DNA of 35,545 nucleotides from a virus (lineage: Duplodnaviria; Heunggongvirae; Uroviricota; Caudoviricetes). Both the position numbers and the translations under genes were made by a program. Of this stretch, positions 7,744-35,545 are shown piece after piece; within the stretch, counting starts at the first letter, position 1; each line of letters begins with the position of its first letter. Location of the stretch: positions 1 through 35,545 of IMG/VR virus record IMGVR_UViG_2698536672_000015; one strand, given 5' to 3'. Under the pieces are notes generated by a model, which searched no databases, had not been told where the DNA came from, and saw nothing but the letters and a program-made list of their open reading frames with translations.

Positions 7744-8436
7744 TTAATTGTGTCGCTTAAGGGTTTGTGACTGGCTGATTAAGACCTTTCCAAAGACCAT
7801 AAACCGGTGTTCATTTTCGCTGGTAATTCCCCATTCACGGTAAATCTGGTTATCAGAAATCACCAGTAGTTTGTCAGGTATCATTTGCAGTCGTTTAACA
7901 TAAATTTTATCATCAAAACCAAATACATAGATACCATCTCCATCAAACTGATTGATACTGACATCAACGAAGATGAGATCTCCTGGCTCAATGGTTGGAC
8001 ACATACTGTCCCCACGAACGTTGATAACTTTAATGTGATTGGCTGGTCGTCCGCCAAACATCGATACAGCATTATCAGTTCTGTATTCAATGGCATGAAT
8101 CACATCAATGACATCACCGCCCTGGATAAGGCCATTTCCCGCACTGGCACTGACATCCAGCATTTCAATACGGAATACATCCTTCACCTGCGCAACATCC
8201 TCACTAATACTGTTTTTACATACAGTATTACTTTTGAAGTCTGAGGTAAAGAGATCAGCAATATCAACACCTAAGCTCCTGGCAATATTACTCAGAGCTT
8301 GTTCAGTGAATTGTTTCTGCTTACCTGTTTCCAGGCGCGAAATATTCGCCGCATCCACTCCTATTGCTTCAGCGAGATCGGCGATTTTCATGTTCTTCGC
8401 CTGGCGAAGTTGTCTGACTCGATTTCCTATGTTCAT
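7744..8436 (-). CDS. cI: CI-like prophage repressor: N-terminal HTH plus C-terminal S24 LexA-like peptidase domain, 230 aa
   Basis: HTH segment IADLAEAIGVDAANISRLETG; Ala-Gly (SASAGNG) candidate cleavage site; catalytic Ser (GDSM) and Lys (VKRL); divergent from the cro-like gene. Confidence 0.85.
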   Translation of the reverse strand: MNIGNRVRQLRQAKNMKIADLAEAIGVDAANISRLETGKQKQFTEQALSNIARSLGVDIADLFTSDFKSNTVCKNSISEDVAQVKDVFRIEMLDVSASAGNGLIQGGDVIDVIHAIEYRTDNAVSMFGGRPANHIKVINVRGDSMCPTIEPGDLIFVDVSINQFDGDGIYVFGFDDKIYVKRLQMIPDKLLVISDNQIYREWGITSENEHRFMVFGKVLISQSQTLKRHN

Positions 8437-9338: not shown

Positions 9339-9483
9339 ACAGTTTAACGGCAAATAACCGTTGGTCGCAACAGCTGGTGGTCCGCGTGGCTGAACACCTG
9401 TTGTTACGGCATGAATGCAGATTACCAAATCACCTGCCTGTAAGTAACCACAGAGAACTTTACCTGACTGTGGGGGGCGAGTT

Positions 9484-11521: not shown

Positions 11522-12010
11522 ATGAGTCTTTTGAATGAAGTTCAGAAATTCATTGAAGCCCATCCGGGGTGTACTTCCGGAGACATTGCGGATGCTTTTG
11601 CTGGTTACTCACGGCAGCGCGTTCTGCAGTCAGCAAGCAAGTTACGTCAGAGTGGGCGTGTGGCTCACCGTTGTGAAGGGGATACACGCAGACATTTCCC
11701 GCGCCTGACTGAGAGAGCACAGGAGCCGGAACCACAACCAGTTCGTGAAACCAGACCTGTGCGCAATTTCTATGTCGGCACTAACGATCCCCGTGTGATT
11801 TTGTGCCTGACCCGCCAGGCTGAAGAACTAGAGTCCAGGGGCTTATACCGTCGTGCTGCAACGGTGTGGATGGCGGCATTCCGTGAAAGCCACTCCCAGC
11901 CAGAACGAAACAATTTTCTGGCGCGTCGTGAGCAGTGTTTACGGAAAAGCAGCAAGCGCGCTGTATCGGGTGATGAGTGGTATCTGTCAGGGAATTACGT
12001 GGGGGGTTAA
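11522..12010 (+). CDS. Hypothetical protein with a PerC-like C-terminal region, 162 aa
   Basis: Segment AEELESRGLYRRAATVWMAAF resembles the PerC-family motif as I recall it; unverified. Confidence 0.35.
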   Translation: MSLLNEVQKFIEAHPGCTSGDIADAFAGYSRQRVLQSASKLRQSGRVAHRCEGDTRRHFPRLTERAQEPEPQPVRETRPVRNFYVGTNDPRVILCLTRQAEELESRGLYRRAATVWMAAFRESHSQPERNNFLARREQCLRKSSKRAVSGDEWYLSGNYVGG

Positions 12011-12336
12011 TGACGACGTTAACTCAATGCCAGCAGCAGGTGCTGGATATGCTGATTTCTTATCAGAAAGAACGTGGTTTCCCGCCAACCAATCAGGAGG
12101 TGGCAGCCATGCTGGGATACCGTTCGGTGAATGCAGCGGTGGAGCATCTTCGCGCACTGGAGAAAAAAGGCGTCATCACGATAAAGCGTGGCGTGGCCCG
12201 GGGTATCACGCTTCATACCACAGTGAAGGACGACGACAGCGAGGCAGCCGGGATTATCCGCGCACTGCTTGCCGGTGAGGAAAACGCCAGGCTGCGTGCA
12301 ACTCACTGGTTACATGAGAGGGGCCTGAAAGTATGA
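12010..12336 (+). CDS. LexA N-terminal DNA-binding-domain-like protein with no peptidase domain, 108 aa
   Basis: LTQCQQQVLDMLISYQKERGFPPTNQEVAAMLGYRSVNAAVEHLRALEKKGVITIKRGVARGITL parallels the LexA N-terminal winged helix; start at the ATG at 12010 with a G-rich RBS and TAATG overlap. Confidence 0.6.
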   Translation: MTTLTQCQQQVLDMLISYQKERGFPPTNQEVAAMLGYRSVNAAVEHLRALEKKGVITIKRGVARGITLHTTVKDDDSEAAGIIRALLAGEENARLRATHWLHERGLKV

Positions 12337-12722
12337 AGCTTATCCTGCCTTTCCCGCCCAGCGTGAACACTTACTGGCGACACCCTAACAAAGGGGCGTT
12401 TGCAGGTAAGAGCCTGATAAGCGCGGCGGGGCGAAAATTCCAGAGCGCGGCGTGCGCAGCAATAGTTGAGCAGTTACGTCGTCTGCCGAAACCAACGTCG
12501 GCACCTGCTTCAGTGGAGATCGTGTTGTTTCCTCCGGATAACAGGATCCGCGATCTGGATAACTATAACAAGGCGCTGTTTGACGCCCTGACCCACGCAG
12601 GTGTGTGGGAAGACGACAGCCAGGTGAAAAGAATGCTGGTGGAGTGGGGACCGGTTATCCCGGAAGGGAAGGTCGAGATCACTATCAGTAAGTACGAGAA
12701 AACGGCGGGTGCAGCCGCCTGA
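12333..12722 (+). CDS. rusA: RusA-family Holliday junction resolvase, 129 aa
   Basis: N-terminal LPFPPSVNTYWRH and RDLDNYNKALFDALTHAGVWEDDSQV match RusA motifs. Confidence 0.85.
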   Translation: MKLILPFPPSVNTYWRHPNKGAFAGKSLISAAGRKFQSAACAAIVEQLRRLPKPTSAPASVEIVLFPPDNRIRDLDNYNKALFDALTHAGVWEDDSQVKRMLVEWGPVIPEGKVEITISKYEKTAGAAA

Positions 12723-14565: not shown

Positions 14566-14928
14566 ATGCGTGATATGTATGAAGTATTGGACCGCTGGGG
14601 AGCATGGGCTGCAGCAGAAAATAGTGGTGTGGACTGGCAGCCGATAGCGGCTGGTTTCAAGGGACTTTTACCACACGGTAAAAAGTCACGTCTCCAGTGT
14701 GCTGATGATGAAGGCATCATGATAGACGGTTGTGTGGCTCGGTTGCGAAAGTATAAACCAGAGGAATATGAGCTAATCATAGCTCACTTTGTTATTGGTA
14801 TCTCATTACGCACTATTGCCAAGAAGAGAAGATGTTCAGATGGCACAATTAGGAAGGAATTGCAGACTGCCATGGGGTTTATCAGCGGTGTAATAATAAC
14901 TATAAACCCCATTATGGTAGTTAATTAA
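14566..14928 (+). CDS. Q: Late-gene antiterminator Q (phage 82 / QuuD type), 120 aa
   Basis: MRDMYEVLDRWGAWAA...GFKGL...SRLQCADDEG...CSDGTIRKELQTA matches my memory of QuuD-type Q proteins; start at the ATG at 14566 (RBS GTGGAGAAAG), not the TTG at 14551. Confidence 0.8.
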   Translation: MRDMYEVLDRWGAWAAAENSGVDWQPIAAGFKGLLPHGKKSRLQCADDEGIMIDGCVARLRKYKPEEYELIIAHFVIGISLRTIAKKRRCSDGTIRKELQTAMGFISGVIITINPIMVVN

Positions 14929-15496
14929 TGTGAATCCTATCACCAAGATAGTATAGTCCAAAAAATGTTGAAACAAGCATTTGCCATGTAAGGAATAAAA
15001 AGATAATGATATAGCACCAGTTTGCTATATCATTATTCAGTATGTTTATTAGTGGTGTGATAAAAGCGTTGAAAATCACTATGCATATGCTGAGGGCAGT
15101 TAAAAATGAAAATAACATGCACAGAAATAATCTTCTGGTAAGTTTCTCTTGAGTGTCAACAATTCTACCATTTTCTTTTGTTCGTGTAATTTTAATAAAA
15201 GGAGTGCCATTAGTTCCTATCAGAGGGTAGTCAATTTGTTCTCTGTTGAAAGTGGCTATTGCTGCAAGAGCTGCTATATAAAAACCTGGCAGATTTGATA
15301 CAAATCCAGATATAGACTTAATAAAGCCGCCATCTTTTAGTAGGTCTGATGTAGGTATTTTAAATAAATAAAAGTAAAAAAAAGAAATCACAGCAAGCCC
15401 GGCAGGTGCATAAAAATCGTATGCGCACTTACCACTAATTCCCTTAATGAAAAGGTAACCAAACGGTCTAAATAAATGTGAAAATATACTAATCAT
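14921..15496 (-). CDS. Hypothetical membrane protein, 191 aa, about four TM helices; gene 2 of the AT-rich two-gene cassette
   Basis: Hydrophobic segments AGLAVISFFYFYLF, FYIAALAAIATF, LFLCMLFSFLTALSICIVIF and WCYIIIFLFLTWQMLVSTFFGLYYL; ATG 7 nt after the upstream stop with a GAGG RBS; its stop overlaps the Q stop in TTAATTAA. Confidence 0.65.
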   Translation of the reverse strand: MISIFSHLFRPFGYLFIKGISGKCAYDFYAPAGLAVISFFYFYLFKIPTSDLLKDGGFIKSISGFVSNLPGFYIAALAAIATFNREQIDYPLIGTNGTPFIKITRTKENGRIVDTQEKLTRRLFLCMLFSFLTALSICIVIFNAFITPLINILNNDIANWCYIIIFLFLTWQMLVSTFFGLYYLGDRIHIN

Positions 15497-15503
15497 ATTA
15501 GCC

Positions 15504-16532
15504 TCACATGACCTCGATAATCTTATTCACAAACTCCATGTTAATACTATCATAAGAATCCTTTAAGCGCGAAGAAAAACCATTTATTACACTCTTTTTG
15601 ATAAATGTTTTTTCCAGCCCATCCAGCCTTACATTTGAAGTTTGAAGGTCAACTTGTCTTGTGAATCCTGTCTCTGGCTCTTTGAATTTTATTTTTATTA
15701 AGTCATAACCTCCATTTTTATCTTCTTTAAAGAAGTTTGAGACAGATTTTATCCATCCAAGGACATTGTTGGGGCCATGGTTTGGTACTAAGCGTAAAGT
15801 ACTTTCTTTAGGAATAATAGCCGCGTTAACATCTGGCGCATTAATAGTTCTGTATTCATTCTTTACCAAAACGACATCAGAAAGTCCTTCTTTATTTATT
15901 TTATTGAACAAATCTTCATCTAACTTTCCAGATATATCAAAGACTGGCTTGTATAATACTTTTATTTTTTTCTTTGTTAAACTTGACACTTCATTTGTTA
16001 AAGTGTTACATGAAAAGATATCTTCATTATCTTTGGCTACGTTAAAGAGAACTTTATTCAGGAAACCATTTATTTTTGCTGTGGAAACTCCTGGTATTGG
16101 CATAAAACTCATGTCATACGTTCGCATATTTCCGTCTAGAGAAATAATCATATGAGAAGAAACTTCGTAACCTTCACCTTCCTCATGTTTTGGTGATATT
16201 TCGGTGCGAACATCTGTATTAATGTTTTTTAATACAGTAGTGCTTCCATTTTTATCTACAGCATTAATTAAAAGACCAAGATGGCTGGGTTTTTTATCGG
16301 CTCTGTTTGATAAGAATATTACATCTTGTAAAGTTAAAACTAAGTCTCCTTTTTCATAACTGTGCATCATTGCTTTACAACGTACTATTTTAGAAGCAAG
16401 TTCACGCATTGTTGGTACCGGGCAAACACAGTTCGATCTGATGCTATCATCAATTTTCTGTGTACGGTATTGTGTATCGATCGTAATAGTATGATGAGTT
16501 ATTACTCTACTGAATGCGTCCAGTGTAGCCAT
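15504..16532 (-). CDS. Hypothetical soluble protein, 342 aa, K/N/D-rich; gene 1 of the AT-rich two-gene cassette
   Basis: Long uninterrupted ORF in an AT-rich block (18 G+C in 15001-15060, 30%); no Walker, kinase or other motif I can recognise. Confidence 0.65.
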   Translation of the reverse strand: MATLDAFSRVITHHTITIDTQYRTQKIDDSIRSNCVCPVPTMRELASKIVRCKAMMHSYEKGDLVLTLQDVIFLSNRADKKPSHLGLLINAVDKNGSTTVLKNINTDVRTEISPKHEEGEGYEVSSHMIISLDGNMRTYDMSFMPIPGVSTAKINGFLNKVLFNVAKDNEDIFSCNTLTNEVSSLTKKKIKVLYKPVFDISGKLDEDLFNKINKEGLSDVVLVKNEYRTINAPDVNAAIIPKESTLRLVPNHGPNNVLGWIKSVSNFFKEDKNGGYDLIKIKFKEPETGFTRQVDLQTSNVRLDGLEKTFIKKSVINGFSSRLKDSYDSINMEFVNKIIEVM

Positions 16533-34066: not shown

Positions 34067-35545
34067 ATGGGTAAAGGAAGCAGTAAAGGGCATACCCCGC
34101 GCGAAGCGAAGGACAACCTGAAATCCACGCAGCTGCTGAGTGTGATCGATGCCATCAGCGAAGGGCCGATTGAAGGTCCGGTGGATGGATTAAAAAGCGT
34201 GCTGCTGAACAGTACGCCGGTGCTGGACAGTGAGGGGAATACCAATATCTCCGGTGTCACAGTGGTGTTCCGGGCAGGTGAGCAGGAGCAGACACCGCCG
34301 GAGGGTTTTGAATCCTCCGGATCCGAGACGGTGCTGGGTACGGAAGTGAAATATGACACGCCGATCACCCGGACCATCACGTCGGCAAACATCGACCGTC
34401 TGCGCTTTACCTTCGGTGTGCAGGCACTGGTGGAAACCACCTCAAAGGGTGACCGGAATCCGTCGGAAGTCCGCCTGCTGGTTCAGATACAACGTAACGG
34501 TGGCTGGGTGACGGAAAAAGACATCACCATTAAGGGAAAAACCACCTCACAGTATCTGGCCTCGGTGGTGGTGGGTAACCTGCCGCCGCGCCCGTTCAGT
34601 ATCCGGATGCGCAGGATGACGCCGGACAGCACTACAGACCAGCTGCAGAACAAAACGCTCTGGTCGTCATACACCGAAATCATCGATGTGAAACAGTGCT
34701 ACCCGAACACGGCACTGGTCGGCGTACAGGTGGACTCGGAGCAGTTCGGCAGCCAGCAGGTGAGTCGTAATTATCATCTTCGCGGGCGCATTCTGCAGGT
34801 GCCGTCGAACTATAACCCGCAGACGCGACAATACAGCGGTATCTGGGACGGAACGTTAAAACCAGCATACAGCAACAACATGGCCTGGTGTCTGTGGGAT
34901 ATGCTGACCCATCCGCGCTACGGCATGGGGAAACGTCTTGGTGCGGCGGATGTGGATAAATGGGCGCTGTATGTCATCGGCCAGTACTGCGACCAGTCGG
35001 TGCCGGACGGCTTTGGCGGCACGGAGCCGCGCATTACCTGTAATGCGTACCTGACCACACAGCGCAAGGCGTGGGATGTGCTCAGTGATTTCTGCTCGGC
35101 GATGCGCTGTATGCCGGTATGGAATGGGCAGACGCTGACGTTCGTGCAGGACCGACCGTCGGATAAGGTGTGGACCTATAACCGCAGTAATGTGGTGATG
35201 CCGGATGATGGCGCGCCGTTCCGCTACAGCTTCAGCGCCCTGAAGGACCGCCATAATGCCGTTGAAGTGAACTGGATTGACCCGGATAACGGCTGGGAAA
35301 CGGCAACAGAGCTTGTGGAGGACACGCAGGCCATTGCCCGTTACGGTCGTAACGTCACGAAGATGGATGCCTTTGGCTGTACCAGCCGGGGGCAGGCGCA
35401 CCGCGCCGGGCTGTGGCTGATTAAAACGGAACTGCTGGAAACGCAGACCGTGGACTTCAGCGTGGGCGCAGAAGGGCTTCGCCATGTACCGGGCGATGTC
35501 ATTGAAATCTGTGATGATGACTATGCCGGTATCAGCATCGGTGGT
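34067..35545 (+). CDS. J: Host specificity / central tail fibre protein J, N-terminal 493 codons, truncated at the window end
   Basis: Near-identity to my recollection of the lambda J N-terminus (MGKGSSKGHTPREAKDNLKSTQLLSVIDAISEGPIEGPVDGLKSVLLNSTPVLD...); not in the ORF track because no stop is reached. Confidence 0.93.
   Translation, partial: MGKGSSKGHTPREAKDNLKSTQLLSVIDAISEGPIEGPVDGLKSVLLNSTPVLDSEGNTNISGVTVVFRAGEQEQTPPEGFESSGSETVLGTEVKYDTPITRTITSANIDRLRFTFGVQALVETTSKGDRNPSEVRLLVQIQRNGGWVTEKDITIKGKTTSQYLASVVVGNLPPRPFSIRMRRMTPDSTTDQLQNKTLWSSYTEIIDVKQCYPNTALVGVQVDSEQFGSQQVSRNYHLRGRILQVPSNYNPQTRQYSGIWDGTLKPAYSNNMAWCLWDMLTHPRYGMGKRLGAADVDKWALYVIGQYCDQSVPDGFGGTEPRITCNAYLTTQRKAWDVLSDFCSAMRCMPVWNGQTLTFVQDRPSDKVWTYNRSNVVMPDDGAPFRYSFSALKDRHNAVEVNWIDPDNGWETATELVEDTQAIARYGRNVTKMDAFGCTSRGQAHRAGLWLIKTELLETQTVDFSVGAEGLRHVPGDVIEICDDDYAGISIGG

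Follow-up and report, generated by a model that had tools for sequence, protein, structure and literature searches.

The gene at positions 12010 to 12336 of the virus record IMGVR_UViG_2698536672_000015 (Caudoviricetes), a stretch of 35,545 nucleotides (nt) referred to here as the window, encodes a protein of 108 amino acids that is confirmed as a genuine LexA-type winged helix without an autoproteolysis domain. This LexA-like gene is under strong purifying selection, which is clear also in the part that encodes its C-terminal tail, is located in the early-right operon of a lambdoid phage and recurs together with canonical SOS boxes. From the fold, domain content, conservation, operon position and SOS-box co-occurrence observed here, we infer its dimerisation, its DNA specificity, the sign of regulation and its physiological role. 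It is proposed, at somewhat less than an even chance, that the protein is a small sequence-specific regulator, likely a dimer, which would target SOS-type boxes as a RecA-proof mimic of LexA.

A LexA-type winged helix without its peptidase domain

The gene and the parts of its N-terminal domain are as follows.

12010..12336, + strand: LexA-like gene (SfV orf42 / mEp460 gp46 family, PHROG 362), with an ATG start and 108 codons followed by a stop
12010..12216, + strand: LexA-type winged helix-turn-helix, codons 1-69 (PF01726, AlphaFold2, Foldseek, and a ratio of nonsynonymous to synonymous polymorphism, pN/pS, of 0.024)
12124..12165, + strand: recognition helix region SVNAAVEHLRALEK, codons 39-52 (from the alignment with LexA; helix motif SVNAAVEH)

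A sequence-only reading of the window had matched the 108-residue protein by eye to the N-terminal winged helix of LexA, and on profile and structure comparison the similarity goes far beyond chance. All of Pfam LexA_DNA_bind PF01726 is covered (positions 1-65/65, expect value (E) 3.4e-19, 68.8 bits with a cut-off of 23.7), and a phmmer search of the Protein Data Bank finds the N-terminal domain of E. coli LexA, 1lea (E 7.9e-16, residues 2-69); identity to E. coli LexA is 51% over residues 2-69. The AlphaFold2 model, with a predicted local distance difference test (pLDDT) score of 77, has helices at residues 6-22, 28-35 and 40-52 and wing strands at 56-59 and 65-68, and Foldseek superposes it on the LexA structures 3jso, 1jhh and 1lea with a root mean square deviation (rmsd) of 1.3-1.5 A over 67-69 residues at ~50% identity. 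Residues 28-56 of the protein read NQEVAAMLGYRSVNAAVEHLRALEKKGVI. The residues of E. coli LexA that contact DNA are Ser39, Asn41, Ala42, Glu44 and Glu45 (PMC3091678). Four of these five are kept, with identical numbering (S39, N41, A42 and E45), and the fifth, Glu44, is replaced by Val.

Nothing of the peptidase domain of LexA follows. The S24 peptidase profile PF00717 gives no match in the 108 residues of the protein, while the cI of the window, as a positive control, does match it; the domain with the Ser119/Lys156 dyad of LexA is not present, as the protein ends at residue 108. The equivalog profile TIGR00498 for lexA is reached with 67.6 bits, below its cut-off of 110.95, and over profile positions 1-91/203 only. 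RecA-stimulated self-cleavage is not possible because there is no S24 domain, which supports the resistance to RecA-mediated cleavage that had been suggested along with the missing domain.

The same reading had described a tail with no Ala-Gly/Ser-Lys autoproteolysis domain, but an Ala-Gly dipeptide does occur in the protein.

12271..12276, + strand: Ala-Gly, codons 88-89 (LLAGE, 86-90), which HMMER aligns with the LexA cleavage site A84-G85 (VAAGE)

The dipeptide varies in close relatives (LLANE, LLVGE) and is replaced by ERE, TRK, SGG, DDQ and others in distant ones. It also sits at the end of a helix predicted by AlphaFold2, unlike the cleavage site of LexA, which is in a beta-strand/loop. 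Cleavage at A88-G89, including cleavage in trans, was rejected, since the dipeptide is not conserved and falls in a predicted helix, and it is not a credible cleavage site.

The C-terminal tail

Beyond the winged helix, the tail had been taken as a short leftover, a description that does not hold given that it is a conserved two-helix module.

12217..12231, + strand: acidic linker TTVKD, codons 70-74, modelled with low confidence (pLDDT <50 at 71-74; length varies in the family alignment)
12232..12315, + strand: two amphipathic helices (75-87 and 93-102), codons 75-102, presumed dimerisation hairpin (AlphaFold2 pLDDT ~85)

The tail helices are modelled with higher confidence than the remainder of the AlphaFold2 model. 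Among 12 diverged members of the family (38-50% identical), 11-12 have a hydrophobic residue at each of the tail positions 82, 83, 86, 87, 97, 100 and 101, and 9-10 have one at each of the positions 79, 80 and 93; Gly105 is nearly invariant among diverged family members. Such a hydrophobic pattern is what would be expected of an amphipathic hairpin that packs on a second copy of the protein, and the two-helix tail is probably a dimerisation hairpin.

Distribution, naming and selection

The protein matches PHROG 362 ("transcriptional repressor") over its whole length (residues 1-108 on profile positions 1-106/106, E 2.6e-58). Homologues with 94-99% identity are SfV orf42, mEp460 gp46, SfII_44, genes of SfIV, cdtI and 2H10, and genes in Stx2c and Stx2a_1447/WGPS2 phages. 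A search of 50,697 phage records found the gene in 65, and among 5426 complete E. coli genomes it occurs in 2233 (41%), with up to 4 copies per genome. In a scan of contigs with six query sequences, every full-length relative found was in an Enterobacteriaceae prophage; other kinds of stand-alone LexA domain are common in phages generally, also in a structure search of BFVD.

The novelty that the sequence-only reading implied is not tenable, since numerous records of phages and of E. coli have long annotated the gene as LexA-like. The homologues carry the PGAP/NCBI label "LexA family transcriptional regulator", and some records are misnamed "LexA repressor and protease" or "RecA-mediated autopeptidase". 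The gene is thus not new as an object, with thousands of annotated records, and a stand-alone LexA domain of a phage has a characterised precedent. In the full-text literature, no functional study of the PHROG 362 / SfV orf42 family was found, and only the paper on GIL01 gp6 came up. E. coli K-12 appears to retain, as CPS-53, only a remnant of this kind of prophage, which lacks the LexA-like gene; among the complete E. coli genomes, neighbouring genes bear a yfdN (PerC-family) label. A K-12 remnant that lacks the gene may explain the neglect of the protein.

Selection on the gene is strong. Over 49 alleles, pN/pS is 0.10 overall, with 0.024 for the winged helix and 0.22 for the tail, and the 108-codon open reading frame (ORF) is unbroken in 84 of 86 related loci.

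SOS boxes as candidate targets

SOS boxes were scored on a matrix built from 25 E. coli boxes. Two sites in the window are concerned.

8208..8227, no strand assigned: canonical SOS box TACTGTTTTTACATACAGTA in the linker codons of cI, 25.3 bits; host LexA, and possibly the LexA-like protein, as candidate binder
16220..16239, no strand assigned: weaker SOS-like site TAATGTTTTTTAATACAGTA in the PDC-M53A ORF, 18.6 bits; a variant occurs in 2 related loci

The site inside cI had been pointed out before, and it is a real, top-scoring and phylogenetically conserved SOS box. Its score equals that of the best genuine boxes, and at least 18 bits were reached in only 0.8% of shuffled windows. Among the SfII, Citrobacter and Kluyvera alleles, 19 of its 20 positions are invariant, with heavily diverged flanking DNA in Kluyvera; the single change, in SfII, turns a Cys codon into Tyr and improves the box. 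This cI allele occurs in 13 phage records, each of which has the LexA-like gene as well. A promoter scan found no consensus promoter at the box on either strand, and LexA bound there could possibly act as a roadblock or on an internal or antisense promoter. The site at 16220-16239 is possibly a chance match in AT-rich DNA, and a second exact CTGT-N8-ACAG match, at 9438-9453, was dropped because its SOS-matrix score is under 9 bits.

Three strong boxes recur in a set of 83 gene-carrying loci: one within cI (31 loci), one at the start of a methylase gene that follows the antiterminator gene Q (25) and one in the gap between rusA and a KilA-N gene (10). The methylase box, TACTGTAAAAATAAACAGTG and variants, is placed at the 5' end of a late-region DNA methyltransferase gene (locus L001, mEp460, 11857-11876; locus L002, SfV, 34170-34189; loci L089-L094) and is conserved from E. 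coli to prophages of Kluyvera, Kosakonia and Enterobacter. The KilA-N box, TACTGTATTTATGAACAGTG, is located in the intergenic region after rusA (locus L022, 6765-6784, and nine other loci), and its position suggests that the boxed KilA-N gene may be an antirepressor-like gene under LexA control. In a control set, a box of at least 22 bits is present in all four genomes with the gene, while none of five lambdoid genomes without it (lambda, two Stx2a phages and two Stx1 phages) reaches 18 bits. The intergenic regions of the window yielded no other palindromic operator, only repeats of the cI/Cro type (TTGCGC) and a terminator-like hairpin.

Some related observations concern sites and genes around these boxes. 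The methylase module is missing from the window, and PDC-M53, a candidate defence system in PADLOC, is found in its position: two AT-rich ORFs between Q and the lysis genes, at 14921-15496 and 15504-16532 (both - strand), match it (B, E 1.7e-54; A, E 1.3e-31), and the pair is also present in SfII (SfII_49/50). The KilA-N gene of the window begins 20 nt after rusA and has no SOS box. The prophage Stx2c_2409 has, near attR (locus L164, 49306-49627), a tandem pair of SOS boxes that score 18.3 and 23.1 bits and are separated by 8 nt; they precede a minus-strand ORF that is DinI-like but diverged.

Gene, reading frame and operon setting

The immediate surroundings of the LexA-like gene are as follows.

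11522-12010, + strand: PerC-like ORF, directly upstream of the LexA-like gene
12001..12012, + strand: Shine-Dalgarno sequence GGGGGG and TAATG overlap with the stop of the PerC-like ORF (sequence reading)
12333..12722, + strand: rusA, the downstream neighbour (Pfam RusA), whose ATG overlaps the stop of the LexA-like gene (ATGA); synteny in most related loci

The early-right operon has a lambdoid order: cI (with an S24 domain; 7744-8436, minus strand), cro, a CII-like gene, Rha/Ash, a replication protein with HTH_36 and DnaD_N, the PerC-like ORF, the LexA-like gene, RusA, KilA-N, DUF968/HNH and the antiterminator Q. No consensus promoter was found directly upstream of the LexA-like gene in a promoter scan. 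This, together with start and stop codons that overlap those of the neighbours, points to expression from the early (pR) operon, and the simplest view is that the gene belongs to the early lytic genes, with translational coupling to its neighbours, including rusA. In most relatives (among them loci L001, L002 and L003) a dam-type methylase gene separates the PerC-like ORF from the LexA-like gene. It is missing in the window and in a minority of phages (2H10, Ayreon and two Stx2c phages), which in the window is why the PerC-like stop overlaps the LexA-like start. A PADLOC search with the LexA-like protein gave nothing meaningful (a weak match to a CARF region, E 4e-4).

Two lineages depart from this arrangement. 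In Kluyvera (loci L089 and L091) and in a Klebsiella sp., the winged helix is fused in frame, through a variable 13-residue linker, to a complete RusA. The fusion (proteins P0253-P0276) comprises 24 clusters at 73-97% identity, has no stop codon in the linker and has lost the two-helix tail. RusA is a homodimer, and its replacement of the tail fits a winged helix that needs a dimerising partner, though the fusion also raises the idea of a functional link with RusA. In a Klebsiella subfamily (locus L005, 6293-7300; loci L170-L249), an SOS box, a dinI homologue, an ORF of 96 amino acids and the LexA-like gene follow in this order, and in 70 of 80 such loci the SOS box and dinI lie ~600 nt upstream of the LexA-like gene. 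DinI is a known modulator of the SOS response.

Comparison with known systems

With the N-terminal domain of E. coli LexA (1LEA, 3JSO) the protein shares its fold (rmsd 1.4 A) and also its net charge (+4). Where LexA continues with a beta-rich cleavage-site region and a catalytic/dimerisation domain, the LexA-like protein has its conserved two-helix tail, and its gene belongs to a phage early operon, with no autoregulation through an SOS promoter. The 1-84 fragment that self-cleavage of LexA leaves likewise lacks the S24 domain. Neher and co-workers are reported to have found in 2003 that this free N-terminal fragment, where ClpXP does not degrade it, retains some repressor activity in vivo. 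The repressors encoded by lexA(Ind-) alleles are full-length, dimeric LexA proteins that a mutated cleavage site renders non-cleavable; by analogy, the trait shared with them would be the occupancy of SOS boxes irrespective of RecA, with the difference that the LexA-like protein lacks the whole cleavage machinery. SfV Orf42, mEp460 gp46, SfII_44 and the homologues of cdtI and Stx2c phages belong to the same family, have the same gene context and do not differ in kind.

The closest characterised analogue is gp6 of GIL01, a tectivirus of Bacillus thuringiensis. This truncated LexA homologue of 66 amino acids binds a palindrome of its own, GaCACA..TGTGtC, for which Lys38 is essential, and activates the late promoter P3 (PMC6182141). 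Both proteins are stand-alone LexA DNA-binding domains of temperate phages, and gp6 is expressed from an early operon once SOS has been induced. BLASTP gives no alignment between the LexA-like protein and gp6, while hhalign pairs the family profile with gp6 at a probability of 96.6% (63 columns, 32% identity). Unlike the LexA-like protein, gp6 has no helical tail, and its recognition helix is SHKTAHRY as opposed to SVNAAVEH; moreover, gp6 activates a late promoter, whereas the phage of the window has the antiterminator Q for its late genes.

Proposed function and alternatives

In the mechanism proposed, the protein would consist of the winged helix and a C-terminal hairpin that most likely provides the dimer. 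It would appear on prophage induction or phage infection, from the pR operon, and activated RecA could not inactivate it because it has no S24 domain. In the E. coli subfamily its most likely targets would be the CTGT-N8-ACAG boxes on the phages themselves and possibly host SOS promoters, so that LexA-like occupancy would be re-imposed after host LexA has been destroyed. The sequence-only reading, that the protein occupies SOS boxes while resisting cleavage or regulates phage genes such as cI, is thereby partly supported, and judged from sequence evidence it is a reasonable hypothesis to be held tentatively. A further step, which we consider rather unlikely, is that the mimic, induced with its prophage, shuts the LexA boxes of both phage and host chromosome again at a time when RecA is still active and thereby shapes SOS output, and that in Klebsiella it forms with DinI an SOS-induced negative-feedback module.

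Several points weigh against SOS boxes as the targets. Glu44, a contact residue in LexA, is replaced, and keeping four of five contacts at 51% identity has a chance of ~0.2 in a simple binomial, which is not statistically compelling. Recognition-helix positions 42-45 vary across the family, with E, D, A, G, L, I or T at position 45, so that specificity is not locked to the SOS box, and the Klebsiella proteins linked to dinI have the helix SSNAVLLH, which is not that of LexA. Between subfamilies, the LexA-like protein is 41-65% identical, the flanking RusA 64-97% and DUF968 49-99%, both mostly 64-91% in the same loci; this faster divergence suits a regulator of diversifying specificity. The recurrent boxes are canonical sites for host LexA. 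The box in cI is unchanged where the helix of the LexA-like protein has diverged (SVNTITGH in the Citrobacter locus L088, SPNAAADH in Kluyvera), and hence the phage protein is not needed to explain the box, for which host LexA suffices. The SOS-box association, which ties the gene to SOS-wired phages, comes from phages that are related and therefore not independent, with a control of small size, and the scoring matrix from 25 boxes. Finally, gp6, the characterised analogue, has a changed specificity and is an activator. On the other side, gp43 of mEp390, only 46% identical, still reads SPNAAAEH at the recognition helix. As far as sequences allow, the family as a whole resembles regulators with drifting specificity, of which the E. 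coli subfamily may read SOS boxes.

The main alternative is a regulator of the gp6 type that has diverged in specificity, which would bind an operator of its own on the phage or on competing elements and repress or activate phage promoters, with no role at host SOS boxes. We regard it as a serious, if somewhat unlikely, explanation. That gp6 is itself a truncated LexA homologue acting as an activator at a new site, together with the profile alignment to it, argues for this alternative, as do the loss of Glu44, the difference at helix positions 42-45 between subfamilies and the evolution of the gene at a faster pace than its neighbours; the tail, as modelled, would also give a dimer geometry unlike that of LexA. 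Yet the E. coli subfamily keeps S39, N41, A42 and E45 where gp6 has SHKTAHRY, the few intergenic regions of the window offer no alternative palindromic operator, and canonical SOS boxes are the only strong palindromes resembling protein-binding sites to be met repeatedly alongside the gene. With Q serving the late genes, a late activator like gp6 would not be needed either. The position of the gene brings up another explanation, an accessory of recombination or replication that works with RusA or with the replication initiator, for instance by using its tail to tether or target the resolvase. In most loci, and even at 41-46% identity, the gene lies immediately before rusA with the ATGA overlap, the natural fusion to RusA persists in its 24 clusters without linker stops, and there are weak similarities to the winged helices of DnaD_N and of O-like initiators. 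However, the Kosakonia, Enterobacter and Klebsiella loci have DUF968 or a small ORF as the next gene and keep the tail all the same, gene order in the nin region is conserved by position in lambdoid phages generally, a fusion that dispenses with the tail fits a tail that dimerises better than one that binds RusA, and the similarity to LexA is far stronger than that to any replication protein. This makes a role beside RusA improbable.

An equally minor possibility is that of a LexA antagonist, which would compete or share half-sites with host LexA and so derepress or activate the methylase and KilA-N genes of the phage in an undamaged cell. On infection of a cell with intact LexA, the LexA-boxed phage genes would otherwise stay silent, and gp6 demonstrates that a LexA-type domain can activate transcription. 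The N-terminal domains also contact each other in the complex of LexA with DNA (PMC3159453). Nevertheless, a protein that consists of a DNA-binding domain only normally still blocks RNA polymerase when it sits on an operator, an activation surface finds no support in the analysis, and polymerase modified by Q reads through the genes of the late region anyway; an antagonist would accordingly be a poor bet. The remaining explanation, a functionless, decaying fragment of a captured lexA, could appeal to the truncation of the protein relative to LexA and to the aligned Ala-Gly as a remnant. It is effectively refuted by the selection analysis: the ORF is intact in nearly all related loci, pN/pS is low, the tail is conserved among members that are 38-50% identical and the gene is found in 41% of complete E. 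coli genomes. On grounds of pN/pS and ORF integrity, a pseudogene or relic was thus rejected.

Implications

The SOS response governs prophage induction, the release of Shiga toxin, mutagenesis and antibiotic tolerance, and a RecA-proof protein of the LexA type could alter this response whenever its prophage is active. Should the reading as a LexA mimic be true, a mimic present in some 40% of E. coli genomes, Stx2c and Stx2a prophages included, would affect SOS output and the yield of Shiga-toxin phages, as well as the induction of co-resident elements with LexA-controlled antirepressors, colicins or defence genes. If the protein instead has a specificity of its own, the family would be a further case, like gp6 of GIL01, of phages recycling the LexA domain.

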